A stretch of 64,000 nt of DNA from Lachnospiraceae bacterium (GCA_035271185.1 DATERV010000174.1:7707-71706); one strand, 5' to 3'. Shown: positions 43,208-60,323, counted from the stretch's first letter. The notes: generated from the letters alone by a model not told the origin. Made by a program: numbers and translations.

Positions 43208-43750
43208 ATGGAACAGAAATTTGAATTATCACAAATGGAGCAGGAAACGGAAGAAATGCTTCGAATCCGGTATTTGAAGAAAGAGAACGCTCTTTTTTCC
43301 AGAACGGGCACGGGTTTTTTAAGCCTTCAGTTGGGGGAAGAATTTTATCCCCGAGTAAAAGTAGTGAGAATGTATCCGTTTACACAAAAGGACGAGTTTA
43401 TTTCAATTCGTACATCGGATGAGCATTCCAGGGAAATCGGGATTATTGAAAAACTAAGCGATATGGAGCCTGATACATTGGTAATGCTGAAAGAGCAGCT
43501 GGCTTTAAGGTACTTCACGCCGATCATTCATAAAATTAATAACATTAAAGATGAATATGGTTATGCATACTTTGATGTAGAAACAGATCATGGCAACTGT
43601 CGTTTTACAATTCAGATGGGAAGCAATGCAGTGGTTCATTTATCCGAATACCGGATACTGATACTGGACATTGACGAAAACAGATTTGAGATTTCTGATC
43701 TGACTAAACTGACGGCTAGGGAGAGGAAGAAGCTTGATTTATTTCTCTAG
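43208..43750 (+). CDS. Small cytoplasmic protein, DUF1854-like (recalled family name, unverified)
   Basis: 180 aa with no TM or signal peptide, wedged between two ABC exporter genes (9- and 17-nt gaps). I recall the DUF1854 family having this gene context. GGAGAG SD. Confidence 0.7.
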   Translation: MEQKFELSQMEQETEEMLRIRYLKKENALFSRTGTGFLSLQLGEEFYPRVKVVRMYPFTQKDEFISIRTSDEHSREIGIIEKLSDMEPDTLVMLKEQLALRYFTPIIHKINNIKDEYGYAYFDVETDHGNCRFTIQMGSNAVVHLSEYRILILDIDENRFEISDLTKLTARERKKLDLFL

Positions 43751-43767
43751 GAAATAAGGAGAACAAA

Positions 43768-45963
43768 GTGATACTAAACTATATATTATCGAAGGAAAAT
43801 ATTGAAATCTGTAAGCTTTTGGATGAAGAAAAGATATTTTACTGCCTGCCATCAGATATTGATTTAGCAGGTAATTTTCGCGGCAATTCCTATGTAGTAA
43901 TGACAAACAGGAGAGTATTTTTGTTAGAAGAGGGTTGTCTTTCCAAGGAGTTTTTCATTAGTGATTGTGAGAGTATACAGTGTGAGCCTCGGATTGCCTG
44001 TGGTATTGTTTATATAATCAGGGAAGGAACACAGATACTAATAGCAAGATACTCGGCCAAACACCTTGTACGGTATTCCTATTTATTCCGGGGAATGCAA
44101 ATACTAAAACAGGGGAGAACTGACAGAGTAATCAGCAGTGAATATGAGAAATCCTGTCCCAAATGTGGTCGTGCACTGCCAGGAACCAAGGATTGTCCGA
44201 AATGCAGTGGAAAGAAACAAGGTATTCTCTACGTATTTGGTGCCATGTTGAAGCCCCATATAAAGGAACTGATTGTCATATTGATCTTTATGCTGGCAGC
44301 AACATTTGTAACACTGGCCAATCCGGCCATACAAAAGGTACTTATTGATGATGTGCTGGTAGCTGATCGGAAAAATGTGAAAGAAGCTGTAATATGTCTG
44401 CTTCTTATGCTGGTCATGTCAGTAGGAATCGTCATTATCAATGTGGTAAAAAGTTATTTGTGTACGAGACTGGGTTCCAATATCAGTGAAGAACAGAGAA
44501 GAAAGCTGTTTGTGAAGATTCAACAGTTATCTCTTTCTTTTATTAATGAAAGAAGTCCGGGAGAACTGATGAACCGTATTGTACAGGACACCAACCGAAT
44601 CAGTCACTTTGTGGGGGATGTTTTCTGTAATATGTTTACCGTATCGGTACTGTTTGTGTGTGTATGTGGATACATGCTGATACTGAACTGGAAACTGGCT
44701 TTGTTATCCTATGTATTCATTCCGGTTTCCGTTGTAGTTTCCGTTGCATACAGAAAAAGAGTACGAAAGAGATTCAGAATGCAGGGAGCAAAAAGTGATA
44801 AGGTCAACAGTAATTTGCAGGATGTGATTTCCGGTATGACAGTTGTCAAGTCTTATGGCCAGGAACAGAGAGAATCCGAGTATTTTAATGCTACAGCTGA
44901 TGATTTTGCTAAAGTACAGCGTGGCAATGAAGTGTTCTTTGCTGTTTTTTATCCGTTTTTGTCTTTTACACTAGGAGCGGGCATTTATCTTGTCACTTTT
45001 TTTGGAGGGATGAAAGCCATACAGGGGAGCATGACTCCGGGAGAGCTGTTACAGTTTATCAGTTATGCCAATTTGATGTATACTTACGTAAACTGGCTGA
45101 GTAATATGCCACGTGCCCTGATGAACTTTGTTACCAGTGTAGAAAGAATCGGTGATGTAGAGAATCAGGAACCCTCTATTTTTGACATTCCGGGAGCAGT
45201 GAAGCATATTATTGAAGGAGAGATTACTTTCCGGAATGCTTCCTTTGGATATAAATCCTATAAACCAGTTTTGGAAGGAATCAATCTTACTGTACATAAG
45301 GGAGAAATGATAGGACTGGTAGGAGCTTCCGGTACAGGAAAATCTACACTTATTAATCTTATCATGCACCTTTATGAAGTAGACGACGGAGAGATTCTGG
45401 TAGATGGCATCGATATTCGTCAGATCAAGCTGGATTATTACCACAGTCAGATTGGTGTGGTCTTACAGGAAAATTTCCTGTTTGCCGGTTCTATATTAAA
45501 CAATATCCGTTTTGCCAATCCAGATGCAACCATAGAGGAAGTCATTCGTGCCGCTAAAATGGCCAATGCACATGATTTTATTTTGAAAACTCCGGATGGA
45601 TATAATACCTACGTAGGGGAACACGGTTATAATTTATCAGGGGGAGAGAGACAGAGAATTGCCATTGCCAGAGCCATTTTGCATAATCCTAGATTATTAA
45701 TACTGGATGAAGCAACTGCAAGTCTGGATACGGAAAGCGAGTACCTGATTCAGACGGCACTGAACAGATTGACCGAAGGAAGGACTACATTTGCTATTGC
45801 ACATCGTCTGTCCACACTGAAGGACGCAGACAGACTGGTGGTAATCGATGGGCATAGCATTGCTGAAGTGGGGACACATGATGAACTCATGGAGAAAAAG
45901 GGAATCTACTATAACCTTGTGCAGGCCCAGTTTCAGATGCAGAAAAGCAGAAATGTACAATAG
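43768..45963 (+). CDS. Type-I ABC exporter (TMD-NBD half transporter) with ~150-aa N-terminal PH-like + zinc-ribbon extension
   Basis: GTG start after AAGGAG. CPKCGRALPGTKDCPKC at aa 130-146. NBD with GASGTGKST, LSGGERQRIAIARA, LLILDEATASLD, IAHRL. Confidence 0.9.
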   Translation: MILNYILSKENIEICKLLDEEKIFYCLPSDIDLAGNFRGNSYVVMTNRRVFLLEEGCLSKEFFISDCESIQCEPRIACGIVYIIREGTQILIARYSAKHLVRYSYLFRGMQILKQGRTDRVISSEYEKSCPKCGRALPGTKDCPKCSGKKQGILYVFGAMLKPHIKELIVILIFMLAATFVTLANPAIQKVLIDDVLVADRKNVKEAVICLLLMLVMSVGIVIINVVKSYLCTRLGSNISEEQRRKLFVKIQQLSLSFINERSPGELMNRIVQDTNRISHFVGDVFCNMFTVSVLFVCVCGYMLILNWKLALLSYVFIPVSVVVSVAYRKRVRKRFRMQGAKSDKVNSNLQDVISGMTVVKSYGQEQRESEYFNATADDFAKVQRGNEVFFAVFYPFLSFTLGAGIYLVTFFGGMKAIQGSMTPGELLQFISYANLMYTYVNWLSNMPRALMNFVTSVERIGDVENQEPSIFDIPGAVKHIIEGEITFRNASFGYKSYKPVLEGINLTVHKGEMIGLVGASGTGKSTLINLIMHLYEVDDGEILVDGIDIRQIKLDYYHSQIGVVLQENFLFAGSILNNIRFANPDATIEEVIRAAKMANAHDFILKTPDGYNTYVGEHGYNLSGGERQRIAIARAILHNPRLLILDEATASLDTESEYLIQTALNRLTEGRTTFAIAHRLSTLKDADRLVVIDGHSIAEVGTHDELMEKKGIYYNLVQAQFQMQKSRNVQ

Positions 45964-45981: not shown

Positions 45982-46908
45982 TCATAGTCTTGCGTTTTTA
46001 GCCCGATACTCACTGGGCGTACAGTTCTTTTGCTGCTTAAATAGACGGTTAAAGGTGGAGATGCTTGGAAAACCTGCCCGAAGTGCTACTTCAGTGATAG
46101 ACAAATCCGGTTCTGCCAAAAGCTCTTCAGCTGCCTTAATCCGTCTGTAGCAAATGTAATCGCAAAAAGTAAAGTTGGTGTATTGCTTGAACAGTCTGGA
46201 AAAATGAAACTTACTAAATCCAATCATGTCAGCAACATTTTCCAGATTCAAGTCTTCCATATAATGGGTGTCGATATAATCCATTAGTTCATTGAATTTA
46301 TGCATATATTCTTTCTGCTTATAAAGACGAACATTAGGAAACATATCTGATTCATCCAAACGGTTGTACCCCAGCTTAATAAAGAATTTTAGCAGGTTGG
46401 AATAGATGGACAATTCAGCATATTCATGTTTATTAAAATATTCATCTGTCATTGTCATCAGAGACTGGTGAAGATCGTCATAAATTTTGGGGTATGTATC
46501 CTTTTTAATATGAAAAGGAGCTACCAATAAGGACTGGATACCTGCAAACCCTTTCAATCTGGTCAATGGTGTAATATCAAACAGGAAGATAAAGCGGCTT
46601 CCGTTTTCCGGAGCAATTAACTTATGTATTTCTCCGGGGGGGATGATAAATATATCACCGGGCATGATGTGAAAATACTCATCCCCAACCTTAATGTCAT
46701 AATAATTATTGTGGGGCATGATAATCTCTAACGCATTGTGCCAGTGAGTATCATAGACAATGCTCTGCTCATTGTACCAGATTCTGACAGTGGTACTGTT
46801 GTGATATTCCACTATTTCATGTATGTTATCAACTAGTCTGGAACCAGCATAATCAGCATTTGCTGAGTAAAGATCCATATCCTTACTTTGGGAATAAATG
46901 TCAATCAT
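45982..46908 (-). CDS. AraC family transcriptional regulator (cupin sensor + HTH)
   Basis: C-terminal AraC HTH (IGFSKFHFSRLFKQYTNFTFCDYICYRRIKAAEELL...ITEVALRAGFPSISTFNRLFKQ), N-terminal cupin-like region. GGGAGG SD. Confidence 0.92.
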   Translation of the reverse strand: MIDIYSQSKDMDLYSANADYAGSRLVDNIHEIVEYHNSTTVRIWYNEQSIVYDTHWHNALEIIMPHNNYYDIKVGDEYFHIMPGDIFIIPPGEIHKLIAPENGSRFIFLFDITPLTRLKGFAGIQSLLVAPFHIKKDTYPKIYDDLHQSLMTMTDEYFNKHEYAELSIYSNLLKFFIKLGYNRLDESDMFPNVRLYKQKEYMHKFNELMDYIDTHYMEDLNLENVADMIGFSKFHFSRLFKQYTNFTFCDYICYRRIKAAEELLAEPDLSITEVALRAGFPSISTFNRLFKQQKNCTPSEYRAKNARL

Positions 46909-47197: not shown

Positions 47198-50155
47198 ATG
47201 AAAGAATCTACTAAAAGAGTAATTATTATTTTAGGTGCGCTGTTGGCGATTGTTGTATGTTGTTTATTATTGAATCTTCGCCAGACAGTAAATTTTTCGA
47301 AAAAGTATGAAGGTGTGGATTTGACTACAGATGCAGAAGGTGTAGGCAGAGAGGGTACTTATATGAAGTATCAGACTGCGCATAAAGAAGCTGCACGTCC
47401 TCAGAATGATGTAGATGTGGATATTTTTTCTTATTTAAACGGAGAAGAGGTTGAGACATATACAAATTATGCAGGGGTGGATCAGGCGCTTTACACAGGA
47501 GCCAGTTCCAGCGTAACATGGGAAGTGAATATTCCACAAGCCGGATTGTATAACATCCTTTTGGAATATATACCTGTGGAGTCCAGAGGAGTAGCCATCG
47601 AACGTTCTTTCTATATTAATGATGCACTTCCTTTTGATGATGCAGCTAATATTGCTTTTTACAGAACGTGGATGGACGGCGGAGAAAAGCGCGTAGATAA
47701 CCAGGGAAATGAATTCCGTCCTGTTCAGGTTGAAAACTATGACTGGGATAGTACATATTGCAGAGATGATATGGGCTATGTGGTGGAACCCTTTCAATTC
47801 TATTTTGAAAAAGGGTTGAACACCATTACTATGGTTGGCGTAAATGAGCCCATGGTCTTAAAGAAAGTTTCAATCACTGCTGTGAAAGAGAAGGTGACTT
47901 ACCAGGAATACATACAAAACCAGCCTACCGTGACACAGACAGCAGATGGATTAAATTATCTGCGCACAGTGCAGGGAGAAGAATCTTCATTACGTTCTGA
48001 ATCCTCACTATATGCAAAATATGATCGTTCTTCACCGACCACTTACCCTAACAGTGTCACCAAGACTCTACTTAACTATGTGGGTGGGGATTCATGGAAG
48101 ACTTCAGGACAATGGATTGAGTGGAACATTGAAGTCCCAGAAGATGGTTATTACAACATTATGATTAAGGGACGTCAGAATTATACCAGAGGTAGTGTAT
48201 CAAGCCGTACCGTACATATTGATGGGGAAATCCTGTTTGATGAGTTAAAAGAGATTTCATTTGCTTATGCAAACGATTGGGAGTGTAAAACACTTTCTGA
48301 TGAGAATGAAGATCCATTTAAATTCTATCTGACCAAGGGAACTCATACCTTACGCTTGGAAGCCACTCTTGGAGACATGGGACAGATTTTAGAGGAATTG
48401 GAAGATTCCACATTCAGATTAAATCAGATGTACCGTGAGCTTTTGGTTTATATCGGATCAACACCTGATAAATACAGAGATTACCATATTGATCAAATGT
48501 ATCCGCAGATGATTGATGCTATGTCATTGGAATCAAAGAGACTGTTCAAATTGGTAGATGATGTTGTTTCAGTTACCGGACAGAAAGCTGATAAAATCGC
48601 TTCCGCACAGACACTTGCGCAGCAGCTGGAAAGATTTACAAAAAAACCAGAGAAAATTACAATTGAATTTACTACATTTAAAGATAATATCACTGCACTG
48701 GGTACTGCTATCCTCAATATGAGTGAAACCAAGATGGATGTTGATTATCTGGTAGTAAGCGGAACTGATGCAAAAGTAGAGAAGGATAAAGCGAATGGCT
48801 TTGCCAAAGCATGGCATGAAATCAAATCATTTTTTGCTTCTTTCGTAGTAGATTATAATTCCGTAGGTGATGTTTATGATGATAAGAACGGTGATGGAAC
48901 AATTAAAGTATGGGTCCTTACCGGACGTGATCAAGGAACAATATTGAAATCCATGGTTGATGATACCTTTATTCCAAACTCAGGAATAGGAGTTAATGTA
49001 GAGATTGTTACGGGAGATGCTCTATTGACTGCAGTACTTGCAGGAAGAGGGCCCGATGTGGTTCTTTCTGTAGGCGCAGACCAGCCAATCAACTATGCAC
49101 TTCGTGGTGCAGCAGAGGACTTAACACAATTTACTGATCTAGATCAGGTACTAAAATCATATAATGCAAGTTCCTACGCACAATATGAACTGGAAGGTGG
49201 TCTTTATGCATTACCTGAGACACAGACCTTTAATGTCATGTTTTATAGAAAAGATGTTTTGAACGAGCTAGAGTTGGAAGTACCGAATACATGGCAGGAT
49301 GTGATTGAAATCCTTCCTACCATACAGGGAAATAATATGTCAATAGGTATTCCTACTGCTGCTGGTAGCAATAGTATTGCGACTCCTTCTACTGCCGTTG
49401 CTTCCACACAGCCTGACTTGTCCATGTATTTCAGCTTACTGTTCCAGAATGGCGGGGACTTATACAACGAAGCCGGTACGGCAACTACAGTAGATAAAGA
49501 AGCAGGAATTGAAGCGTTTTCAGATTATACTAAGTATTTTACTGATTATGGAATCCCTATGATTTATGACTTTGTCAGCAGATTCCGTTCAGGCGAAATG
49601 CCAATAGGTATTGTTTCCTATGCTACATATAATACACTGATGGTATCTGCACCGGAAATCAAAGGACTATGGGACTTTACATTAATTCCTGGTACAGAAC
49701 AAGTAGATGAGAGTGGAAAAACCTATATTGATCGTTCCGATTTTGTGACCGGATCAGCAACTATGATGATTAAGCAGAATAACGATAAGAAGAAACAAAA
49801 TGCTTGGGAGTTTATGAAATGGTGGGCTTCCGCAGACTCACAGGTTCGTTTCGGACGTGAGATTGAGGCATTACTTGGCTCTTCTGCAAGATATGCTACA
49901 GCAAATTATGACGCATTTACCAGACTCGCCTGGAGTGCGAGAGATATTGAGATTTTGTCAGAACAGTGGCAATGGACCAAAGGTATTCGTGAAGTGCCAG
50001 GTGGATATTATACCGGTAGACATATTACGAATGCAATTCGTAAAGTTCTTAATGAACAAACAGATCCAAGAGAGACAATCTTAGACTATAGGATTAAGAT
50101 TGATGATGAGATTATCAAAAAACGTGAGGAATTTGGTCTGCCAATAGATAGATAA
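47198..50155 (+). CDS. Giant membrane-anchored extracellular solute-binding protein with two N-terminal CBM-like modules
   Basis: 985 aa. N-terminal TM (VIIILGALLAIVVCCLLLNL), no lipobox. Two internally repeated beta-sandwich-like modules (VTWEVNIPQAGLYNILLEY...FYFEKGLNTITM and IEWNIEVPEDGYYNIMIKG...FYLTKGTHTLRLEA). Helical linker, then a C-terminal type-I sugar SBP-like region. Confidence 0.8.
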   Translation: MKESTKRVIIILGALLAIVVCCLLLNLRQTVNFSKKYEGVDLTTDAEGVGREGTYMKYQTAHKEAARPQNDVDVDIFSYLNGEEVETYTNYAGVDQALYTGASSSVTWEVNIPQAGLYNILLEYIPVESRGVAIERSFYINDALPFDDAANIAFYRTWMDGGEKRVDNQGNEFRPVQVENYDWDSTYCRDDMGYVVEPFQFYFEKGLNTITMVGVNEPMVLKKVSITAVKEKVTYQEYIQNQPTVTQTADGLNYLRTVQGEESSLRSESSLYAKYDRSSPTTYPNSVTKTLLNYVGGDSWKTSGQWIEWNIEVPEDGYYNIMIKGRQNYTRGSVSSRTVHIDGEILFDELKEISFAYANDWECKTLSDENEDPFKFYLTKGTHTLRLEATLGDMGQILEELEDSTFRLNQMYRELLVYIGSTPDKYRDYHIDQMYPQMIDAMSLESKRLFKLVDDVVSVTGQKADKIASAQTLAQQLERFTKKPEKITIEFTTFKDNITALGTAILNMSETKMDVDYLVVSGTDAKVEKDKANGFAKAWHEIKSFFASFVVDYNSVGDVYDDKNGDGTIKVWVLTGRDQGTILKSMVDDTFIPNSGIGVNVEIVTGDALLTAVLAGRGPDVVLSVGADQPINYALRGAAEDLTQFTDLDQVLKSYNASSYAQYELEGGLYALPETQTFNVMFYRKDVLNELELEVPNTWQDVIEILPTIQGNNMSIGIPTAAGSNSIATPSTAVASTQPDLSMYFSLLFQNGGDLYNEAGTATTVDKEAGIEAFSDYTKYFTDYGIPMIYDFVSRFRSGEMPIGIVSYATYNTLMVSAPEIKGLWDFTLIPGTEQVDESGKTYIDRSDFVTGSATMMIKQNNDKKKQNAWEFMKWWASADSQVRFGREIEALLGSSARYATANYDAFTRLAWSARDIEILSEQWQWTKGIREVPGGYYTGRHITNAIRKVLNEQTDPRETILDYRIKIDDEIIKKREEFGLPIDR

Positions 50156-50181
50156 TTATTTGTAGCAGTTGGAGGAGAGCA

Positions 50182-51120
50182 ATGAAGGAATACTTACAAA
50201 AATATTTCATTTTGCGCAAACACAATTTTCAAGTGGGAGTTAAAAAAGCAAAAAGAAGTAAAATGTGCTATTTATTCTTAGCACCATTTGCAATATTGTT
50301 TACTATGTTTAGCGTTTTACCAGTAATTACATCTATATTCTTAAGCTTTACATATTATAATATCTTGGAAGCTCCAAGATTTCTAGGTGTGACAAACTAC
50401 GTCAACCTAATCTTACAGGATGATGTCTTCTTGATAGGTGTTAAAAATACATTTATGATAGCATTCATCACCGGACCAATAGGGTATTTGATGTCCTTCC
50501 TGTTTGCGTGGCTGATTAATGAATTGCCCAGATGGATTAGAACCATTGCAGTTATTGTGTTTTATGCACCTTCCATAGCAGGTAACGTATTCGTTATTTT
50601 CTCCATTTTCTTTAGAGGTGATGCTTATGGATATGTAAATGCATTTTTAATGAATTTGGGACTTATTGACGCTCCTATTCTCTGGCTTATTAATCCTACA
50701 TACATGCTACCTATTTGTATGGTTGTTATTTTGTGGATGAGTCTTGGTACCGGATTCCTTTCCTTTGTTGCTGGATTACAGGGTGTAGACCGATCTCAAT
50801 ACGAAGCTGGATATATGGATGGCGTGAAAAACCGTTGGCAGGAGCTATGGTATATTACTCTTCCCAATATGAAACCTATGCTAATGTTCGGTGCAGTTAT
50901 GTCAATAACATCTTCTTTCGGTGTTGCGGATGTTACCATGGCACTATGTGGATATCCCAGTACAGATTATGCAGCCCGTACTGTTGTAACTCATTTGTTT
51001 GACTATGGTTATTCCCGATTTGAAATGGGATATGCATCTGCAATTGCTACCTTATTATTCGTTATTATGATTTTATGTAATAAAGCAATACAAGGCATGC
51101 TTAGAAGATTGGGAACCTGA
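50182..51120 (+). CDS. Sugar ABC transporter permease (MalF/LplB-like)
   Basis: 312 aa, 6 TM, EAA-loop region (SQYEAGYMDGVKNRWQELWYITLP). Confidence 0.9.
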   Translation: MKEYLQKYFILRKHNFQVGVKKAKRSKMCYLFLAPFAILFTMFSVLPVITSIFLSFTYYNILEAPRFLGVTNYVNLILQDDVFLIGVKNTFMIAFITGPIGYLMSFLFAWLINELPRWIRTIAVIVFYAPSIAGNVFVIFSIFFRGDAYGYVNAFLMNLGLIDAPILWLINPTYMLPICMVVILWMSLGTGFLSFVAGLQGVDRSQYEAGYMDGVKNRWQELWYITLPNMKPMLMFGAVMSITSSFGVADVTMALCGYPSTDYAARTVVTHLFDYGYSRFEMGYASAIATLLFVIMILCNKAIQGMLRRLGT

Positions 51121-51166
51121 CGGGAATGAAAATAAATACCCGCAGTAGCGGAGATAGGGAAGCAAT

Positions 51167-52066
51167 ATGAGTAGAAAGAATAAAGAAGTTAACGTAAAAA
51201 GACATAAGCTCAAAATATTTAAGAAAAGAAAACCAAATCGGTCCAGAGCGGGAGATTTTTCCCTTTATTTATTCTTATTGTTGGTAGCAGTAGCTATGGT
51301 ATTTCCACTAGTATTTGCAGTCAGCAGTGCATTGAAGCCATTGGATGAGTTATTTATGTTCCCACCTAAGGTTTTTGCACAGAATCCTACCTTGGATAAC
51401 TTTTCTGATTTGTTTGTTACCATGGGTAAATCATGGGTATCCTTTTCTAGATACATGTTTAACACAGTATTTATTACTGCAGCCGGTACGGCAGGACATC
51501 TGATTATTGCTTCCATGGGTGCATTTGTACTAGCGAAATATGATTTTCCCGGAGGAAAAGCATTCTTTAATATCGTTGTGGTTGCCTTGATGTTTAGTGG
51601 TTATGTTACAACCATACCAAATTACATTATTTTAAATAAATTAGGTTGGATTGATACTTATTGGGCAATCATAATTCCTGCTTTTGCATCTCCTATGGGA
51701 TTGTTCCTGATGAAGCAATTCATGGAAGGTCTTCCCATGTCACTGATAGAAGCAGCTAAGATTGATGGTGCTAATGAATGGAAAGTATTTTTCAATATAG
51801 TAATGCCTAATGTTAAACCAGCTTGGCTGACCTTGATTATCTTCTCCGTACAGGGGCTTTGGAATAACAGAGCAGCCACTCTGATTTATTCAGAACAGAA
51901 CAAAACTTTAGTTTATGCATTGCAGCAGATACAGAGCGGTGGTATTGCAAGAACCGGGCAGGCTGCAGCGGTTACTGTAATTATCATGATAGTTCCCATT
52001 GCAATTTTCATTTTGTCTGAAAGTCAGATACTGGAAACAATGGCAAGCTCCGGCTTGAAGGACTAA
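51167..52066 (+). CDS. Carbohydrate ABC transporter permease (MalG/LplC-like)
   Basis: 299 aa, 6 TM, EAA loop (LIEAAKIDGANEWKVFFNIVMP). Confidence 0.9.
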   Translation: MSRKNKEVNVKRHKLKIFKKRKPNRSRAGDFSLYLFLLLVAVAMVFPLVFAVSSALKPLDELFMFPPKVFAQNPTLDNFSDLFVTMGKSWVSFSRYMFNTVFITAAGTAGHLIIASMGAFVLAKYDFPGGKAFFNIVVVALMFSGYVTTIPNYIILNKLGWIDTYWAIIIPAFASPMGLFLMKQFMEGLPMSLIEAAKIDGANEWKVFFNIVMPNVKPAWLTLIIFSVQGLWNNRAATLIYSEQNKTLVYALQQIQSGGIARTGQAAAVTVIIMIVPIAIFILSESQILETMASSGLKD

Positions 52067-52080
52067 GATGGAGGCTTGAT

Positions 52081-53580
52081 ATGAAAAAAACAGCGTTAAG
52101 GCTAGTAGCACTTTTATTTGGTGCTGTATTATTAATCAGTACTCCAATGACAGCTAGTGCTGATGAAGGTTATACCTATATTTACGACTGGTGGGGAGAT
52201 ATCCAGTATTCACCTGATGCTTATGAGGTTGCAGGTGTGTTTACAAAAGATGATTTGGGATTGGATACCAATCTAAATAATCCTAGTAGTATGTTTGTAT
52301 ACAAAGATGAAATCTATGTGTGCGACAGTGGAAACAATCGTATTTTAGTATTAAAACGGGATAACGCCGATAAGATTGAGTGTGTTAAGGTAATTGATCA
52401 GTTTTACGGAGATACAGATGTTAAAACTTTTCTAAACCCAACGGATATAGCTGTTGACGATGATGGAAATCTGTATATTGCAGATAACGGAAATCACAGA
52501 ATTGTTAAGTTTGATAAGAACCTTCAATATTTATTGGATTTTACAAGACCCGTAGATGCAACCTTTGATCAGAATACTGAATATCTTCCCAATAAAATTG
52601 TGATTGATTCAGCCGGGAGAGTATTCTGCATTGCAACCAATGTAAATAAAGGGTTGATCAAGTATGAAGCAGATGGAACGTTTTCCGGATTTGTCGGAGC
52701 AACTCCTGTTACATATGACTTTATGGACTATATTTGGAAACGCTTAGCGACAAAAGCGCAGAGAGAGCAGATGGTAGCTTTTGTACCGACTGAATACGCT
52801 AATGTTTATATGGATCGGGATGGCTTCGTTTATGCAACTACCACAAATGTAACAGAAGAAGAGGTAGACGATGGAAAAGCCGATCCCATTCGTAAAATCA
52901 ATATGATGGGAAAAGACATTCTGATTCGTAATGGTGAGTGGTGGCCTATTGGAGATATCTACTGGGGCAACGGCGGTGGTTATGAGGGTCCGTCCAAGCT
53001 TGTAGATATTACTGTTATGGATAATGATGTATATGTAGCACTTGATCGTGTCAGAGGTAAGATATTTGCATATAACAGTCAGGGTGTCATGTTATTTGCT
53101 TTTGGTGGAAATGGTAATCAGGACGGTTACTTCAGAATGCCAGCTTCCATTGAACATATGGGATATGATTTGCTGGTACTAGATTCTGTTGATAACAGTA
53201 TCACTTTGTTCACACCTACAGTATTCGGAAAAATGGTTTATCAGGCTATGGATGAATTCAAGCGTGGTGAATATGAAGCATCTGGTGAAACGTGGAAAAA
53301 AGTAAAATCTTTTGACGGTAATTATGACCTTGCTTATATCGGGATTGGAAGATCTCTGTTAAGACAGGAGAATTACAAAGATGCACTTACCTATTTTGAA
53401 TTGAAATGGGATGATGAAAATTATTCCAGAGCCTTTCAGCAATATCGTAAGGTATGGGTAGAGGAGAATATTGGTTGGATATTTGCAGCAGTCTTTTTGT
53501 TGTTGATAGTTCCTCTTTGTATTGGAAAAGTTAAGAAAATAAAGCATGAAATAGATATAGCAGATATTTTCAGGCTATAG
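52081..53580 (+). CDS. Secreted NHL-repeat beta-propeller protein with TPR-like segment and C-terminal TM anchor
   Basis: Signal peptide (LLISTPMTASA/DEG). NHL-type repeats (VCDSGNNRILVL, IADNGNHRIVKF, VLDSVDNSITLF). C-terminal helix IGWIFAAVFLLLIVPLCIG. Confidence 0.75.
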   Translation: MKKTALRLVALLFGAVLLISTPMTASADEGYTYIYDWWGDIQYSPDAYEVAGVFTKDDLGLDTNLNNPSSMFVYKDEIYVCDSGNNRILVLKRDNADKIECVKVIDQFYGDTDVKTFLNPTDIAVDDDGNLYIADNGNHRIVKFDKNLQYLLDFTRPVDATFDQNTEYLPNKIVIDSAGRVFCIATNVNKGLIKYEADGTFSGFVGATPVTYDFMDYIWKRLATKAQREQMVAFVPTEYANVYMDRDGFVYATTTNVTEEEVDDGKADPIRKINMMGKDILIRNGEWWPIGDIYWGNGGGYEGPSKLVDITVMDNDVYVALDRVRGKIFAYNSQGVMLFAFGGNGNQDGYFRMPASIEHMGYDLLVLDSVDNSITLFTPTVFGKMVYQAMDEFKRGEYEASGETWKKVKSFDGNYDLAYIGIGRSLLRQENYKDALTYFELKWDDENYSRAFQQYRKVWVEENIGWIFAAVFLLLIVPLCIGKVKKIKHEIDIADIFRL

Positions 53581-53597
53581 ATGGAATGGAGGCAAAA

Positions 53598-54254
53598 ATG
53601 ACAGCTTCTTTGACACTCAAAGAGAAGTTTAAGCATTATTTATCTACACTACGATATGCGTTTTATATTTTATCACATCCATTGGATGGATTTTGGGATC
53701 TGACACATGAAAAGAGAGGATCCGTAGCAGCAGCTACTACGATATTAGTCCTTACAATTCTTGCTAGAATAATGAGCATGCAGTATACAAACTTTATGTT
53801 CATGCATGTTTATTGGGACGATATTAACATATTTTTGTATATCGCCAGTATTGTATTTCCTTTATTATTATGGTGTGTGGGTAACTGGGGACTTACGACA
53901 TTGTTTGATGGTAAAGGAAGACTGAAGCAGGTTTATATGTCTACCTGCTATGCACTTCTTCCATATCCCCTGTTACAATTTCCGCTCATTATTGCAAGCA
54001 ATATAGTTACTATAGAAGAAGGCGATTTTTATACTGTAGTAGGAGCATTCTCAATCGTCTGGGCAGCCTTTTTGATTATTGCTGCCATGTTGGAAATACA
54101 TGAATATTCATTAGCAAAAACAATATTTTTTACTGTAGCATCTATATTTGCAATGCTTGTTGAATTGTTTATTTTATTATTATTCTTTAGTATGATAAGC
54201 CAGGGAATTGCATATTTTGTTTCCCTATTTAGGGAGATTATGTTCCGAATGTAG
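53598..54254 (+). CDS. Yip1-domain polytopic membrane protein
   Basis: About five TM helices. N-terminal YAFYILSHPLDGFWDL...KRGS resembles the Yip1 family. The track start is 53586; GGAGG (53588-53592) favours ATG 53598. Confidence 0.7.
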   Translation: MTASLTLKEKFKHYLSTLRYAFYILSHPLDGFWDLTHEKRGSVAAATTILVLTILARIMSMQYTNFMFMHVYWDDINIFLYIASIVFPLLLWCVGNWGLTTLFDGKGRLKQVYMSTCYALLPYPLLQFPLIIASNIVTIEEGDFYTVVGAFSIVWAAFLIIAAMLEIHEYSLAKTIFFTVASIFAMLVELFILLLFFSMISQGIAYFVSLFREIMFRM

Positions 54255-54273
54255 CTGGGAGGAAAGGTTAGAT

Positions 54274-56841
54274 ATGAAAAAAAATTCAACATTAAGTAAA
54301 AAAGTGAAAAGCCTTATTGGCCCAGTATTAATTCTGCTTATCATTGTAGCAGTTGCATGTGTGGTATTATTAGTCAAAGACAAAGAAGAACCAGTTGAAA
54401 TCATTAAAGTAAATGCTTATGAAGGCTCAGAAGAAGATATCATACTAGAGAACGATAAGCTAAAGCTGGTCATGGATGCAACAACAACACAGTTCAATCT
54501 TACAGTAAAGGATACCGGAGCCGTATGGCTATCAAACCCTGAAGATGCAGCAAATGATAGTCTTGCACAAGCTAGTGAAAAGAACAGACTGAGGTCCACA
54601 TTATTACTTACATATAGTACAATTAATGGTGTTGATACATTGTATGATAATTATGCTTTCAGCATGGAAAGAAAAATTTTCCAGATAGAAAAAGGCGATG
54701 ACTATATCAAAATTTTCTATTCGATTGGTGATATCCAAAAAGAATACTATGCTCCTCCAGTGTGTGTTGAAGCTGATTTCGAAGCATTATTATCAAAAAT
54801 GAGTAAATCTGATGCTTCTATGGTTAAAGAATACTATAAAAAATATGATATTAATAAGTTAGGCAAAAAGGACGATAAAGAACAACTTTTAGTAGATTAT
54901 CCAATTATGGAAACAGAAGTTATATTTGTACTACGTAATGCGACCAAGGATAACATCAAGAAGAAATTCGAACAGCTTTTTACAGAAGCTGGATATACAG
55001 ATCAGGATTATGCAAGGGATAAGGAATTAGATTTTTCAGAAAAAAGCTCTGATAAGCCGGTTTTCAATTTAAGCATGATATTTCGTTTAGATGGAGATGA
55101 TCTTGTAGTAGAGGTTCCTTTGGATGAGATTGAATACAAGGATGATTATCCATTATTGTACTTAAGTATTCTTCCTTATTTCGGTGCAGGAACCATGGAT
55201 GAGAGTGGATATTTATTTGTTCCAGAAGGCGGTGGATCCATTATTAACTTTAATAATGGCAAGCTATCACAAAGTAGTTATTTTGCAAATATGTATGGTT
55301 GGGATATGGCCACAGATCGTTCTGCAATCGTACATGAAACAAGAGCTATATTTAATGCTTTCGGTATTTCCAAGAATAACAATTCCTTTATCTGTATCTT
55401 AGAGGATGGGGCACCATATGCAGGCATTCAAGCAGATATTAGTGGAAAAACCAACAGTTACAATTATGTAAATGCATTACATAGTATTTCTCATAGAGAA
55501 CAATATCAATTGGGTGATAAGTATACAGGTGAAATGTTTGTATATGAAGATAGTTTGCCTAAAGAAAAGATCGTGAATAGATATTGCTTTGTAAACTCTG
55601 ATAGTTATGTGGATATGGCTAAGACCTATCAGAATTATCTGCTTAATAAGTACAGTGGTTATATGACAATGAGTGAAGATACAGAAGCACCTGTTGCAGT
55701 TGAAGTTTTAGGTGCTATAGATAAAATAAAGCAGATTGTTGGTATTCCCGTTTCATCACCATTACCATTGACCACCTATAAAGAAGCCGCTGATATGATA
55801 AAGGAGTTGAATGAACAGGGATTCCATAACATGTCCGTAAAGATGGTAGGATGGGCAAATGGTGGAGTCAAGCAAAAGATTCTGAATAAGGTTAAAACGA
55901 TTTCCGAACTGGGTAATAAAAAGAGTTTCAATAATGTGATAAGTACAGCAGCTTCCTTGGATGTACCTGTTTACTTAAATGGCATAACCAATTATGCATA
56001 TGACTCTAGTTTATTGAATGGTTTCGTTGTATTCACTGATAGTGCAAGATTTGTGAGTAGGGAAAAGGCTGAAATATTCCAGTACAATACAGTTTCTTAT
56101 GGCAAGCGTGACTCAATGGAAACGCATTATTTATTAAAAGCCAATTTGATTTTGAAAATGGCTAACAATCTTACTACATATGCACAAAAGAATGCTACAA
56201 ATGTTTCTTTTGAAGATATTGGATATGAATTATCTTCCGATTTCAATCGTAATGGAAGAGTGACCAGACAGGAAGCAATGCTTTCACAGCAGGAGGAATT
56301 AAAAAAGATTTCGGATGCTGGTACCGGTATCATCATTAATGGTGGAAATGATTACGCAATCCCCTATAGTGATCTGATTACTCGTATGGATTTAGTAGGC
56401 TCCCAATATACCATTATTGATCAGACCGTTCCTTTTTATCAATTAGCAATTCACGGATATGTAGACTATACCGGCGAACCGCTTAATATGACACAGAATT
56501 GGGAAGAAGAAGTATTGAATTCCGCTCAGTATGGTGCAGGTTTGGCATTTATCTTTATGGATGAGGATTCTTTTACATTCCAGAAAACCTTATATACACA
56601 ATATTTTGCTACAGAATATGCAGCATGGAAAGACAGAGCTGTAGAGATTTATAATCGATATAATCAAGAATTGGGTCATGTTTTCAATCAGGAAATGACG
56701 GATCATAAGCAATTGACTGATAAAGTTAGCTTAACGACATATCAGGATGGTTCAAAGGTATATGTAAATTATTCCTTCGAAGATTATAAAACATCTGATG
56801 GCGTAACGGTTCCTGCAAGGGATTATAAGGTGCTTCAGTAG
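54274..56841 (+). CDS. N-terminally membrane-anchored ~855-aa extracytoplasmic protein of unknown function (DUF5696-like; recalled name, unverified)
   Basis: TM IGPVLILLIIVAVACVVLL, then a large soluble region with no motif I can assign. The track start at 54208 overlaps the Yip1 gene. ATG 54274 follows GGGAGGAAAGG. Confidence 0.75.
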   Translation: MKKNSTLSKKVKSLIGPVLILLIIVAVACVVLLVKDKEEPVEIIKVNAYEGSEEDIILENDKLKLVMDATTTQFNLTVKDTGAVWLSNPEDAANDSLAQASEKNRLRSTLLLTYSTINGVDTLYDNYAFSMERKIFQIEKGDDYIKIFYSIGDIQKEYYAPPVCVEADFEALLSKMSKSDASMVKEYYKKYDINKLGKKDDKEQLLVDYPIMETEVIFVLRNATKDNIKKKFEQLFTEAGYTDQDYARDKELDFSEKSSDKPVFNLSMIFRLDGDDLVVEVPLDEIEYKDDYPLLYLSILPYFGAGTMDESGYLFVPEGGGSIINFNNGKLSQSSYFANMYGWDMATDRSAIVHETRAIFNAFGISKNNNSFICILEDGAPYAGIQADISGKTNSYNYVNALHSISHREQYQLGDKYTGEMFVYEDSLPKEKIVNRYCFVNSDSYVDMAKTYQNYLLNKYSGYMTMSEDTEAPVAVEVLGAIDKIKQIVGIPVSSPLPLTTYKEAADMIKELNEQGFHNMSVKMVGWANGGVKQKILNKVKTISELGNKKSFNNVISTAASLDVPVYLNGITNYAYDSSLLNGFVVFTDSARFVSREKAEIFQYNTVSYGKRDSMETHYLLKANLILKMANNLTTYAQKNATNVSFEDIGYELSSDFNRNGRVTRQEAMLSQQEELKKISDAGTGIIINGGNDYAIPYSDLITRMDLVGSQYTIIDQTVPFYQLAIHGYVDYTGEPLNMTQNWEEEVLNSAQYGAGLAFIFMDEDSFTFQKTLYTQYFATEYAAWKDRAVEIYNRYNQELGHVFNQEMTDHKQLTDKVSLTTYQDGSKVYVNYSFEDYKTSDGVTVPARDYKVLQ

Positions 56842-56882
56842 GATTTGAAGTAGAAGCGGTAAGCATGGAAAGGGTTTTCAAT

Positions 56883-57788
56883 ATGAAGAATCAGAACAAA
56901 TTAGCAGGTCTACAAAAAAGGAAGGCAATATCAGGATATCTATTCATACTCCCATTTATTCTGGGCTTTCTGGTATTTATGGTCAAACCGTTAATACAGT
57001 CATTGTATATGAGCTTATGTACTGTGGAAGTTAGTTCCAATGGATTTGGTTATATTTATACAAAAATTGATAATTACATAAAGGCATTTACAGTTGATCC
57101 TGATTTTAACAGACTGTTAACAACAGAGATTGGCAGAATGTTTATCAATGCCATTGCAATAATGGTATTCAGTTTCTTTGTAGCATTGATACTGAACCAG
57201 AAATTTAAGGGAAGAGCATTTGTAAGAGCCATTTTCTTCCTGCCGGTAATTTTATCCTCAGGTGTCATTCTAGGGATTGAGTATGATAACACATTATTAT
57301 CCAGTCTACAGGATACAATTCAGGAAAACACAAATGCAACAAGTATAACAGGAGCAATCCAAGACATATTGATTGCAAGCGGAATCGGAACAAGAGCATA
57401 TGATATGGTGTTCCAAATTGTAGATGGCATTTATGATGTAGCCATTTCATCAGGTATTCAAATCGTTATTTTTCTGTCAGGTTTACAGACCATACCGGAT
57501 AGTATGTATGAAGCAGCTTCCATCGAAGGTTGTACCTCATGGGAAAGCTTGTGGAAAATAACATTTCCCATGATTAGTTCCTTATTCCTGGTTAACTGGA
57601 TATATACAATTGTTGATTTCTGTATGCGTACAGATAATGAGGTTATGGAAAAGATTAATACCGTCATGGTATCTCAATTGAACTATGGGTTTGCTTCTGC
57701 AATGGCGTGGATTTACTTTGTTGTTGTAATAGCCATCATAGGAGTCTCCTCATTTATTATCTCAAAGGGGGTTTATTACTATGAGTAG
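56883..57788 (+). CDS. Sugar ABC transporter permease (second importer)
   Basis: 6 TM, EAA loop (MYEAASIEGCTSWESLWKITFP). Start ambiguous: 56865 in the track, or 56883 with GAAAGGG upstream. Confidence 0.88.
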   Translation: MKNQNKLAGLQKRKAISGYLFILPFILGFLVFMVKPLIQSLYMSLCTVEVSSNGFGYIYTKIDNYIKAFTVDPDFNRLLTTEIGRMFINAIAIMVFSFFVALILNQKFKGRAFVRAIFFLPVILSSGVILGIEYDNTLLSSLQDTIQENTNATSITGAIQDILIASGIGTRAYDMVFQIVDGIYDVAISSGIQIVIFLSGLQTIPDSMYEAASIEGCTSWESLWKITFPMISSLFLVNWIYTIVDFCMRTDNEVMEKINTVMVSQLNYGFASAMAWIYFVVVIAIIGVSSFIISKGVYYYE

Positions 57789-58791
57789 AGCGATTACATT
57801 AAGTGAAAAGGAGTATAGAGGGAACTTTTGGGAAAGAAATAGAAAATCCCAGGGATATTTACTCAAGAAGACAATTACCAATATAGCAGTGACGATTTGC
57901 CGCTTTTTATTATTGTTTGGTATGTGCTTCATGATCTTGCAGCCTATACTCAATAAGATTTCTATAAGTTTTAAAGCAGAAGAAGATTTATACAATCCGA
58001 TGGTTATTGCTATTCCGGAGAATTTCTCTACAAGCAATTATCAAGTAGCAGCAAACATCATGGATTATGGAAAAACATTAGGTAATACAATTATAATCGC
58101 ATTGACAATCGCTGTTTTACAGATTGCAGTTTGTACATTAGTTGGTTATGGATTTGCAAGATTCCAATTTCCGTTAAAAAAGTTTTGGTTCGCTTGTGTT
58201 ATCCTAATGATTGTAGTACCTCCGCAGACGATTTCCACCTCTCTGTTTTTGCATTTCAGATTTTTTGATATACTTGGCATTGCCAAATTACTTACAAATA
58301 ATAGTATTAACTTAAGAGGTTCCATTCTACCATATTACATGATGAGTTTAGGATGTATGGGATTAAAGAATGGTCTATATATCTTTATGATTAGACAGTT
58401 CTTTAGAAATATTCCCAAAGAATTGGAAGAGGCAGCTTATGTGGATGGTTGTGGTACCTTAATGACTTTCGTTAGAATCATGCTACCGGATGCAAAACCT
58501 ATATTAACTTCCTGTTTCCTGTTTTCTTTTGTATGGCAGTGGACGGATGGTTTCTATTCATCCATGTTTTTAGGCAACATCAGCCTTTTATCCAGACAGT
58601 TATCGATGATTGGAGACAAGGTTGGATCCTATATGAGAAATATAATGCATACCGCAGGAGCTTCCGTAGGGTATACCAACTGTATAGTAGCAACTGCAAC
58701 ATTGATGGTTATCATGCCCCTTATTATCCTATATCTGTTTGCACAAAAGGGATTTGTGGAGAGTATTAGTAGCTCCGGTATTAAAATGTAA
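57781..58791 (+). CDS. Carbohydrate ABC transporter permease (second importer)
   Basis: 6 TM, EAA loop (LEEAAYVDGCGTLMTFVRIMLP). 8-nt overlap with the upstream permease. Confidence 0.88.
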   Translation: MSRAITLSEKEYRGNFWERNRKSQGYLLKKTITNIAVTICRFLLLFGMCFMILQPILNKISISFKAEEDLYNPMVIAIPENFSTSNYQVAANIMDYGKTLGNTIIIALTIAVLQIAVCTLVGYGFARFQFPLKKFWFACVILMIVVPPQTISTSLFLHFRFFDILGIAKLLTNNSINLRGSILPYYMMSLGCMGLKNGLYIFMIRQFFRNIPKELEEAAYVDGCGTLMTFVRIMLPDAKPILTSCFLFSFVWQWTDGFYSSMFLGNISLLSRQLSMIGDKVGSYMRNIMHTAGASVGYTNCIVATATLMVIMPLIILYLFAQKGFVESISSSGIKM

Positions 58792-58880
58792 CTATGGTAT
58801 AAATTTCCTAGCTGTGTTATACTTAATATGTATTAGTTAGAGTAATACAACAGGAAATGTATATAAAAAAGGAGGAAAAA

Positions 58881-60323
58881 ATGAAAAGTAAAAGTGTTAA
58901 GAAATTCTTAGCTGCAGTACTCACAACAGTGATGGCAGCTAGCGTAGTTGGATGCGGCGACAGCAAACCTGTAACCACACCTTCTACAGATGCAGTACCT
59001 TCATCAACTACAGAAGAGTCAACTGCAGCAACAACAGTAGATGAAGTAGGACAGTACACAGTACTGACCGACGCTGATGGTAATGTTTATGACCTTGGCG
59101 GAATGGAAATTATCATTCGTGACTGGTTTGCAACTGATCCTGCGGAACCTACCAATGATTATGAAGAAGCTCGTGATGCATATCGCGAATGGATTCAGGA
59201 GACCTACAACTTTACAATCAAAGAGCAGGCTATCAGCTCTTGGTCAGATGTTCCTGGTGACTTCGTTAACTATGCAACAGCAGGTGGTGAAGAGAACTAT
59301 GTATTTACCCTTTATCCCAGTGGTGATGTAGTTTCAGCTATGAAGAGTGGTCTTGCATACGACTTATCTACTCTTGACTGCTTAGATTACTCAGAAGCTA
59401 AGTGGGGAAGCAAAGTTCATGATCTGTACAATTTTGATGGTAAGATATATGCTATGCGTGGTATCGAACCAGAACCTCGTTGTGGTGTATTCTTCAACAA
59501 GAGATTGTTAACAGAAGCTGGAATCAATCCTGAAGATATTTATGCATGGCAGGAAGATGGTTCATGGACTTGGGAAAAGTTTGAAGAAGTTTTGAAGAGT
59601 GTTCAGGATGATACAGATAATGATGGTATTATTGATCGTTATGCAATGTGTGAGCAGGACGTTGTATTGTATGATGCTGCTGTATATTCTAATGGCGGTG
59701 AATACGTAGGTAAAGAAGATGGTAAGTACGTTCTGAAAGTAGAAAACGATGAAACCATGGAAGCTATCAACTGGGCAGTTAATTTACGTAAGAACTATGA
59801 AATGAAATACCCAGAAGATGCATCTTGGGATTACTTCATTACCGCTTTCAAAAACGGTGAAGCAGCTTTCAACGTAGCTCAGGCTTACAATGCTAACCCA
59901 GGCCAGCCTTACAACGATATGGAAGATGACTTTGGTTATGTATGTTTCCCTAAAGGACCCAACATGACCGACTATACAAACTGCTATAGTGATAATATGT
60001 ACATGATTCCTGCTTGCTATGATGCAGACAAAGCTTGGAAAATCGCTTTTGCTTATAATCTTTATACCGATCCTATTCCTGGATACGAAGATTATGCTGC
60101 ATGGAAATCACAGTACTACAAGGGATTCAGAGATACCGAAGCTGTTGACTTAACTCTTCAGAGAATGGTTACCAATGGTTCTATTACATTTCAGTCATTT
60201 ATTCCTGCTATGAATCTCGGTAATGATTTCTACTGGACTTTATCAGATGATATAACACCTGCTAAGGCACTTGAGACAATCAAACCTACATGGCAAGCAT
60301 ATATTGACGAAGCAAACAAATAA
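58881..60323 (+). CDS. Sugar ABC transporter substrate-binding lipoprotein
   Basis: Lipobox VVGC, Ser/Thr-rich linker, ~450-aa type-I SBP. The track start is 58857; AGGAGG then ATG 58881 (MKSKSVKKFLAAV) is preferred. Confidence 0.88.
   Translation: MKSKSVKKFLAAVLTTVMAASVVGCGDSKPVTTPSTDAVPSSTTEESTAATTVDEVGQYTVLTDADGNVYDLGGMEIIIRDWFATDPAEPTNDYEEARDAYREWIQETYNFTIKEQAISSWSDVPGDFVNYATAGGEENYVFTLYPSGDVVSAMKSGLAYDLSTLDCLDYSEAKWGSKVHDLYNFDGKIYAMRGIEPEPRCGVFFNKRLLTEAGINPEDIYAWQEDGSWTWEKFEEVLKSVQDDTDNDGIIDRYAMCEQDVVLYDAAVYSNGGEYVGKEDGKYVLKVENDETMEAINWAVNLRKNYEMKYPEDASWDYFITAFKNGEAAFNVAQAYNANPGQPYNDMEDDFGYVCFPKGPNMTDYTNCYSDNMYMIPACYDADKAWKIAFAYNLYTDPIPGYEDYAAWKSQYYKGFRDTEAVDLTLQRMVTNGSITFQSFIPAMNLGNDFYWTLSDDITPAKALETIKPTWQAYIDEANK

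Follow-up and report, generated by a model that had tools for sequence, protein, structure and literature searches.

The window analysed here is a stretch of 64,000 nucleotides from a Lachnospiraceae bacterium (GCA_035271185.1 DATERV010000174.1:7707-71706) which carries a nine-gene operon at positions 47198-60323. As read from its sequence, the operon is very probably a functional unit, and it encodes two sugar importers of the CUT1 type of ATP-binding cassette (ABC) transporter and a surface accessory set of three proteins, namely an NHL beta-propeller protein, a Yip1-domain protein and a member of the DUF5696 family. The nine-gene set is conserved across the Clostridia and into the Bacilli. 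Comparisons of sequence and predicted structure identify DUF5696 as a homologue of the glycosidases of glycoside hydrolase (GH) families GH129 and GH101, at the level of the superfamily and not of family membership. It is proposed, with somewhat better than even confidence, that DUF5696 is a surface-tethered hydrolase that is held at the two importers by a scaffold composed of the NHL and Yip1 proteins. What the analysis shows directly is the gene content, domains, folds, topologies, co-occurrence, the fusion of NHL to Yip1 in other genomes and the homology of DUF5696.

Layout and conservation of the operon

The operon starts with the gene for a giant solute-binding protein (SBP) of 985 amino acids (47198..50155), which is followed by genes for two CUT1 permeases, PermA (50182..51120) and PermB (51167..52066), the 499-residue NHL protein (52081..53580), the 222-residue Yip1-domain protein (53586..54254) and the DUF5696 protein, which is 855 residues long when counted from its ATG (54274..56841). 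The array continues with two CUT1 permease genes of the second importer, Perm2A (56865..57788) and Perm2B (57781..58791), and ends with the gene for SBP2, a lipoprotein SBP of 488 residues (58857..60323). All nine genes lie on the plus strand, and they were assigned from the map of open reading frames (ORFs) and from Pfam matches, to which AlphaFold2 models add in the case of the NHL and DUF5696 proteins. An earlier, sequence-only reading of the same DNA had described six plus-strand genes, with the two permeases followed by the NHL, Yip1 and ~855-residue proteins. This layout agrees with the ORF map and Pfam, all six genes lie where they had been placed, and each of the domain calls is upheld by Pfam. 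The gaps between these six genes had been given as 14-46 nucleotides and in fact range from 5 to 46, the smallest being the 5 nucleotides between NHL and Yip1. The extent of 47198-56841 stands with respect to the genes inside it and fails at its endpoint, as the operon runs to 60323 and the second permease pair and SBP2 had been omitted. The unit is taken to comprise nine genes because Perm2A, Perm2B and SBP2 continue the array past 56841 at gaps of at most 65 nucleotides, with a single overlap of 8 nucleotides between Perm2A and Perm2B, and are then followed by a gap of 334 nucleotides. A scan for promoters and terminators inside the operon gave no signal above shuffled controls and no convincing internal terminators, and an Rfam search of the whole window returned no RNA family match.

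Upstream and divergent lies a gene for an AraC-family regulator (45982..46908, minus strand), which the sequence-only reading had also placed ahead of the operon. Its product combines a cupin-type sensor domain with two helix-turn-helix motifs (Pfam HTH_18, HTH_AraC and AraC_binding) and probably regulates the operon. Of 56 testable Lachnospiraceae loci, 34 have a divergent orthologue at this upstream position, and the regulators that accompany distant loci are of the LacI or AraC type or are histidine kinase/response regulator pairs.

The spread of the module was surveyed in a genome scan that used one genome per species. At least 584 species genomes encode a DUF5696 relative, and the best 80 loci, all of which belong to Lachnospiraceae or unclassified relatives and include the genera Acetatifactor, Butyrivibrio, Roseburia, Eisenbergiella and Lacrimispora, were analysed by tblastn with the proteins of the window. 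The order of genes in these related loci is giant SBP, PermA, PermB, NHL, Yip1, DUF5696, Perm2A, Perm2B and SBP2. Among the 50 Lachnospiraceae loci that were testable, in that they have enough flanking sequence on both sides, the nine genes are complete and collinear in 49, the exception being a locus with a truncated PermB match. A distant set of 80 metagenome loci was collected with a profile built from DUF5696 representatives that are 24-30% identical to the protein of the window, and was searched with hidden Markov models of the components. Here the gene set recurs in rearranged form around DUF5696 homologues of only 25-45% identity. The NHL, Yip1, DUF5696, Perm2A and Perm2B genes are contiguous almost everywhere, and Perm2A comes straight after DUF5696 in every related locus and in 75 of the 80 distant ones. 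Where enough flank is available, 22 of 25 distant loci contain the giant SBP block and 24 of 25 contain SBP2, with permuted positions: the block of giant SBP, PermA and PermB may lie upstream or downstream of the core, and the position of SBP2 varies. The complete module also occurs on annotated plasmids of Butyrivibrio fibrisolvens D1 and of Paenibacillus cellulosilyticus, a member of the class Bacilli.

The tightest block is thus NHL-Yip1-DUF5696-Perm2A-Perm2B, and the closest partner of the accessory trio is the second permease pair. Strong evidence that the module is one functional unit comes from these sequence comparisons, because the set survives rearrangement over a large evolutionary distance. 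Chance adjacency of the genes is rejected on the co-occurrence counts of the collinear Lachnospiraceae loci and the distant sets. The sequence-only reading depended on the genes keeping company beyond this genome, which they do in Lachnospiraceae, in metagenome loci and on plasmids, and its association of the accessory genes with sugar ABC import is borne out by their co-occurrence across a wide evolutionary distance.

The accessory proteins and the importers

The DUF5696 protein matches its Pfam profile (PF18952) over positions 2-612 of 612 with 639.7 bits against a cut-off of 25.6 (E 6.5e-192). It had been described as a DUF5696-like protein of ~855 residues with an N-terminal transmembrane (TM) anchor; the anchor is upheld and the suffix is too weak, the protein being a true, full-length member of the family. 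In the AlphaFold2 model, with a predicted local distance difference test score (pLDDT) of 80.8, the TM anchor (residues 14-32) leads into a beta-sandwich (~56-440) that carries a helical insert, then a (beta/alpha)8 barrel (~470-805) and finally a beta-sandwich at the C-terminus. Foldseek places the GH129 enzyme ZgGH129/DagB (5opq) at the top (E 4e-33, target TM-score 0.67), followed by NagBb (E 1e-21), the GH101 endo-alpha-N-acetylgalactosaminidases (endo-alpha-GalNAc-ases; E 1e-14) and then GH97, GH31 and GH13. AlphaFold prediction and Foldseek comparison of 54274-56841, which had been suggested in the sequence-only reading, thus led to the GH129/GH101 fold, with an identity to the structural matches of these two families of ~11-14%. 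At the sequence level the single protein gives a weak, collinear match to 5opq in the Protein Data Bank (PDB; E 6e-5), a profile of close orthologues matches DagB with an E of 6e-11, and a second DUF5696 profile matches DagB (E 5e-13) and NagBb (E 1e-7), the profile matches to both enzymes covering only the N-terminal domain and barrel strands 1-3. A sequence search with a 60-residue DagB fragment retrieved no GH129-like sequences. DUF5696 is a predicted surface glycoside hydrolase because the fold of GH129/GH101 glycosidases is joined by homology at the profile level. The statement that the last three proteins have no assigned function holds in so far as none was found in the literature, and needs correction for DUF5696, which has a recognisable relative in GH129/GH101.

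The relatives of DUF5696 amount to 5,544 representatives of clusters at 50% identity, and conservation was assessed on 139 full-length representatives that are 24-51% identical. Among these D656 is kept in 96%, D716 in 91%, R665 in 98%, D344 in 95% and an acidic residue at position 318 (D/E318) in 98%. D656 follows barrel strand 4 with the spacing that DagB D486 would predict and is likely to be the nucleophile, and D716, with a GH31-like spacing, is a possible acid/base. The catalytic residues of DagB are D486, E517, E531 and D202, of which only the nucleophile Asp is common to NagBb (PMC5698469), where the counterpart of D486 is D435. A displaced acid/base is not unusual in this superfamily because DagB and NagBb share nothing but the nucleophile.

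Between barrel strand 3 and helix 3 the model contains a stretch of 47 residues (575-621) with a pLDDT below 50. Residues S578, G583, F584, D589, A591, E597, E600, Y604 and Y609 of this stretch are well kept in orthologues, and judging from the model it may form a lid, or an interface that becomes ordered only in a complex. The DUF5696 family is predicted to be always extracytoplasmic because its distant members carry lipoprotein or TM N-termini. Some members are very long, and Pfam scans of such proteins (up to 2431 residues) found no appended carbohydrate-binding module (CBM) or other domain that would hint at a substrate.

The NHL protein scores 54 bits against a cut-off of 20 for Pfam NHL and consists of a signal peptide, a six-bladed propeller (~30-380), a helical stalk resembling tetratricopeptide repeats (TPR; 381-441), a C-terminal TM helix (464-482) and a short basic cytoplasmic tail. 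The best Foldseek matches of its AlphaFold2 model (pLDDT 78.5) are the NHL domains of TRIM71, Brat and Pizza (E 1e-15 to 1e-9), with target TM-scores of 0.72-0.79 against TRIM71, Brat and Pizza6. The propeller is by default read from its model as a binding or scaffold domain. Its neighbour, the Yip1 protein, matches Pfam Yip1 (PF04893) with 51.3 bits against a cut-off of 28.6 and has five hydrophobic segments that correspond to five TM helices. The C-terminal TM anchor of NHL and the approximately five TM helices of Yip1 had both been proposed earlier and agree with the hydropathy prediction, and modelling of 52081-53580 gave the six-bladed propeller with its generic matches.

Throughout the loci examined the Yip1 gene is always located between the NHL and DUF5696 genes or is fused to NHL, and in all 160+ loci its neighbours are NHL, DUF5696 and CUT1 permeases. 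A single NHL-Yip1 protein of 680-835 residues is encoded in 28 distant loci, where each of the 28 long NHL ORFs contains a full NHL domain followed by a full Yip1 domain. Examples among the metagenome loci L083-L162 are L103:4494-6644 and L130:7663-9888, and a Paenibacillus protein annotated as 'YIP1 family' is likewise an NHL-Yip1 fusion, of 719 residues. From hydropathy, the basic tail that follows the TM helix of NHL is cytoplasmic, as is the basic segment at the start of Yip1. The fusion is topologically natural since the tail of the one and the start of the other are both cytoplasmic and the genes are 5 nucleotides apart. The propeller and Yip1 should best be treated as one membrane protein because they are fused in distant lineages and the topology fits. 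The sequence-only reading had placed the large SBP, the NHL protein and DUF5696 outside the membrane and tethered to it, a topology which hydropathy predicts and with which the AlphaFold models of NHL and DUF5696 both agree.

The giant SBP is anchored by an N-terminal TM helix at residues 8-26. Its binding domain (SBP_bac_1, residues 581-882, E 8e-24) matches the oligosaccharide-binding proteins 5ysb and 5f7v, and its N-terminal half, which also matches CBM_35 in Pfam, contains two CBM35/CBM6-like modules (~81-230 and ~285-406) and a helical region (~407-560). A profile of the N-terminal part matches the CBM35 of 5x7g (E 4e-7). The earlier account of an SBP of 985 residues that is CBM-bearing and TM-anchored is borne out in full by the ORF map, Pfam and hydropathy. 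The giant SBP, PermA and PermB are conserved as one block. Both permease pairs match BPD_transp_1 and possess EAA-type loops, which were read from the translations: YEAGYMDGV in PermA, which has six TM helices (nearest NCBIfam models UgpA and GlcT), IEAAKIDGA in PermB (UgpE, GlcU and MalG), YEAASIEGC in the MalF/UgpA-like Perm2A (UgpA and MalF) and EEAAYVDGC in the MalG/UgpE-like Perm2B (MalG and UgpE). SBP2 has the lipobox VVGC and a match to SBP_bac_1 (E 4e-13), and its sole PDB relative is the arabino-oligosaccharide-binding protein 6rjy (E 8e-6). The median identities to Lachnospiraceae orthologues are 82% for PermA, 81% for PermB, 74% for the binding domain of the giant SBP, 71% for Perm2A/B, 66% for Yip1, 62% for the CBM region, 59% for NHL, 55% for DUF5696 and 52% for SBP2, which is the most variable component with orthologue identities ranging from 33 to 58%. 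No ATPase of the MsmX/MalK type is encoded in the operon or in the rest of the 64-kb window. A shared ATPase is usual for the CUT1 systems of Firmicutes. In Paenibacillus the first gene of the operon encodes a UgpC ATPase.

Glycan context, proposed mechanism and competing explanations

A complete xylan-degradation gene set lies upstream of the operon at 17992-33285 (plus strand) and encodes GH8, GH115, GH3, GH2, GH43 with GH43_C2, a 316-residue protein, a GDSL esterase and GH10, and a GH43-CBM6 gene (60658-62253, plus strand) lies directly downstream of the operon. Genes for GH43, GH10 and GDSL esterases flank the module in related Lachnospiraceae and immediately adjoin it in many genomes. A relative with 74% identity has the module followed by GH43-CBM6, GH39, GH43 and GH51, and the giant SBP gene of B. 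fibrisolvens overlaps at its start with a GH43 gene. The link to arabinoxylan holds within the Lachnospiraceae clade, and is specific to it, because GH43, GH10 and GDSL flanks recur and the B. fibrisolvens GH43 gene overlaps the module. Distant loci are flanked by GH26, GH130, GH5, GH18, GH78 and GH43 genes, which include mannan, chitin and rhamnose genes. On the P. cellulosilyticus plasmid (NZ_CP054609, 79381-105033; L164) the module is followed by four LLM-class flavin monooxygenases, with an NADPH-dependent reductase, aldo/keto reductases and more SBPs as further neighbours. We take this monooxygenase and reductase set to recall the oxidative desulfonation pathways for sulfosugars. The (arabino)xylan context that the sequence-only reading had assumed is therefore upheld within Lachnospiraceae, with GH10, GH43, GDSL, GH39 and GH51 neighbours, and does not extend to the distant copies. 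The module may be either a platform with drifting specificity or a system that serves one substrate independently of its neighbours.

The 316-residue protein inside the xylan gene cluster (29336-30286, plus strand) is a cytoplasmic Cys-rich protein with the motif NACCVPNC for which Pfam, NCBIfam and the PDB gave no match. A homologue of 72% identity is present in a related locus (L009), and 36 of 62 related Lachnospiraceae loci have homologues downstream of the module, usually in two copies.

The enzyme activity, substrate, complex formation and regulation that we infer would fit together as follows. The divergent AraC regulator would switch the operon on. With the two CBM35-like modules, the TM-anchored giant SBP would retain glycan chains or large oligosaccharides on the cell surface, and in this organism the captured glycan would probably be derived from arabinoxylan. 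The membrane-anchored DUF5696 would cleave or trim the captured glycan beside the transporters, with D656 as the nucleophile and D716 or another acid as the acid/base. The NHL propeller with its stalk and TM helix would form one membrane scaffold with the five-TM Yip1 protein, and by analogy with the Yip1-family protein YknW this scaffold may position the enzyme and/or the binding proteins at Perm2A and Perm2B. The products would enter via the two importers, one formed by the giant SBP with PermA and PermB and the other by SBP2 with Perm2A and Perm2B, where the variable SBP2 would set a lineage-specific specificity. An MsmX/UgpC-type ATPase encoded elsewhere would power both importers. In a bolder form of the proposal, which is regarded as doubtful, the NHL-Yip1 scaffold, the GH129-like DUF5696, the giant SBP and both permease pairs would make up one stable surface complex that couples hydrolysis to ABC import as a monoderm 'utilisome', DUF5696 would found a new GH family and bacterial Yip1 proteins would be general organisers of ABC complexes.

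A number of observations weigh against a surface hydrolase on an NHL-Yip1 scaffold. The Pfam models of GH101 and GH129 do not match DUF5696 at E <= 0.01, and the barrel region by itself, when searched against PDB sequences, returned no glycosidase and only chance matches such as BamD. D656 is equated with DagB D486 by spacing and conservation only, D648, the Asp that immediately follows barrel strand beta-4, is retained in just 41% of the family, and the positions of DagB E517 (N689) and E531 (~T703) are not conserved. At position 752 the protein of the window has Q where 94% of the 139 representatives and most close orthologues have E. The best Foldseek matches of the NHL protein are generic six-blade propellers with no enzyme-specific match among them, which makes 'scaffold' a default reading, and the literature searched holds no experimental data for any component of the module. 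The flanking carbohydrate-active enzymes (CAZymes) vary by lineage (xylan, mannan, chitin, rhamnose or none), which would not be expected if DUF5696 were an enzyme of fixed linkage specificity and could point to a generic, non-catalytic role of DUF5696. This last point leads to an explanation, considered unlikely, in which DUF5696 is a catalytically dead, glycosidase-derived binding protein, the trio acts as a non-enzymatic platform for capture or gating, and cleavage is left to the neighbouring conventional GHs. The poor conservation of D648 and of the E517 equivalent, the replacement of E by Q752, the absence of a matching GH model in Pfam and the very different CAZyme sets beside the module, which better fit a generic role, would all be accounted for in this way. 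However, the retention of D656, D716, D344, D/E318 and R665 in 91-98% of proteins that are only 24-51% identical is typical of an active site, and the non-conserved acid/base positions lose force within a superfamily where DagB and NagBb have only their nucleophile in common. The exchange at position 752 also carries less weight than it might seem to, as this residue sits in helix H743-753 ahead of barrel strand E756-762 (strand 8), at the N-terminal end of the strand and on the non-catalytic face, and its role is probably structural according to the model.

It is rather improbable that the module serves one constant substrate other than xylan, for which DUF5696 would be the dedicated hydrolase, and that its adjacency to xylan genes reflects the usual clustering of sugar loci. 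The high conservation of the giant SBP binding domain (74%) and of PermA and PermB (81-82%) suggests a constant ligand, and the flanks of distant loci vary widely; SBP2, on the other hand, varies from 33 to 58% in identity, GH10, GH43 and GDSL genes stand immediately beside the module in many Lachnospiraceae, and the B. fibrisolvens overlap implies that the module is transcribed together with arabinoxylan or arabinan enzymes. Candidates for such a substrate would be an alpha-linked glycoside or, given that DagB acts on 3,6-anhydro-D-galactose, an arabinofuranosyl or other furanose-like oligosaccharide. All the nearest structural relatives of DUF5696 are retaining alpha-glycosidases, and the activity of DagB is shared with enzymes of GH127, which is otherwise a family of beta-L-arabinofuranosidases; the binding of arabino-oligosaccharides by the sole PDB relative of SBP2 points the same way. 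The idea that the NHL propeller is itself an enzyme that acts on the substrate, as a lyase, lactonase or esterase in the manner of some NHL/SGL-type propellers, is very improbable. It draws on weak Pfam matches to the SGL (gluconolactonase-like) and Phytase-like families, on the appearance of PAL and virginiamycin B lyase lower in the Foldseek list (E ~1e-10) and on the many D, N, R and H residues that are invariant among orthologues. The best matches of the propeller are nevertheless to non-enzymatic NHL domains (TRIM71, Brat and Thin) and designed propellers, the invariant D-x-x-N-x-R motifs are the structural signature of NHL repeats, and the fusion to a five-TM Yip1 domain, together with the TPR-like stalk, resembles the architecture of a scaffold.

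Known systems, genomic surroundings and significance

With its AraC regulator, two importers, predicted GH and adjacent GH43-CBM6 gene, the locus falls within the loose definition of a Gram-positive polysaccharide utilisation locus (PUL). The CUT1-based PULs of Gram-positive bacteria, such as the xylan and mannan loci of Roseburia and Butyrivibrio, likewise combine a regulator, SBP-dependent CUT1 permeases and GH10, GH43, GH115 or GH8 neighbours and have no ATPase in the locus, and extracellular processing followed by oligosaccharide import is their accepted logic (PMC6344614). Unlike the PULs that have been described, the module contains two importers in one operon, a 985-residue TM-anchored SBP with two CBM35-like modules and the conserved NHL-Yip1-DUF5696 trio, and the same module recurs with different CAZyme neighbours. 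DUF5696 shares its arrangement of beta-sandwich, TIM barrel and beta-sandwich with GH129, which includes DagB (5opq and 8rzk, an alpha-1,3-(3,6-anhydro)-D-galactosidase) and NagBb (5wzn, an alpha-N-acetylgalactosaminidase), and more distantly with GH101. It differs from GH129 in possessing a membrane anchor, a helical insert (166-250) and the conserved loop 575-621, and its context is plant hemicellulose in Firmicutes and not carrageenan or mucin.

In Bacillus, the Yip1-family protein YknW modulates the assembly of the YknXYZ ABC complex (PMC4887032), which upholds the earlier suggestion that it is a precedent for a Yip1 protein working with a bacterial ABC system. The Yip1 protein of the module is also a polytopic membrane protein encoded together with an ABC transporter. 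However, YknWXYZ is an exporter of the MacB type that contains an FtsX permease and an HlyD adaptor, whereas the partners of Yip1 in the module are CUT1 importer permeases, and unlike YknW it has an extracellular NHL propeller as its partner or fused to it. The reading in which Yip1 serves a YknWXYZ-like exporter was rejected, as its conserved neighbours are importer permeases. The window does contain a MacB/YknXYZ-like exporter set (33306-40855, plus strand) with two HlyD-type adaptors (368 and 687 residues), a 948-residue FtsX permease and two ABC ATPases, located 13 kb upstream and outside the conserved module, and 19 related loci have HlyD-like genes at a distance of 2-3 kb on the downstream side of the module. 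These clusters are notable in that YknW, the only studied bacterial Yip1 protein, works with an exporter of this kind; their proximity to the module may be incidental.

In the Sus-like 'utilisomes' of the Bacteroidota, SusCD is accompanied by surface glycan-binding proteins and a surface hydrolase. The logic proposed for the module, with a CBM-type surface binder and a tethered hydrolase at the transporter, would be analogous. Neither the parts nor the membrane are the same, as the utilisome is built around a TonB-dependent transporter in the outer membrane, whereas the module would work on the cytoplasmic membrane of a monoderm cell, at an ABC importer.

Elsewhere in the window, positions 1-17749 (plus strand) encode a purL-like FGAM synthase, the dnaG primase, the rpoD sigma-70 factor, trmK, a NIF3 protein and a uridine kinase. 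The locus is regarded as chromosomal and not as part of a mobile element because of this housekeeping gene context. Between the MacB/YknXYZ-like set and the AraC gene (40874-45963, plus strand), two ABC exporter proteins of 774 and 731 residues, each with a transmembrane and a nucleotide-binding domain, flank a DUF1854 gene; they carry N-terminal extensions of ~170 residues with CxxC...CxxC zinc-ribbon motifs.

Literature searches on DUF5696/PF18952, on Yip1 with SBPs or GHs and on NHL with xylan or Butyrivibrio retrieved no work on the module, and the main text of a Butyrivibrio xylan/pectin transcriptome paper, whose supplements were not searched, does not mention it. The overall logic of the locus would come as no surprise to a specialist. 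Yip1 and NHL truly belong to their families, and their role here is undescribed. The carriers of the module include common fibre degraders of the gut and rumen, namely Roseburia, Butyrivibrio, Acetatifactor, Eisenbergiella and Lacrimispora. Cultured carriers are available in Butyrivibrio fibrisolvens D1, Butyrivibrio sp. AC2005 and Paenibacillus cellulosilyticus, and the ectodomains are domains of a soluble type. To our knowledge, the coupling of surface glycan processing to import is well worked out only for the Bacteroidota. If the proposal is true, DUF5696 would be a candidate for a new glycoside hydrolase family, the bacterial Yip1 and NHL proteins would gain a function, and the module would provide a concrete model of how surface glycan processing is coupled to ABC import in Gram-positive bacteria.

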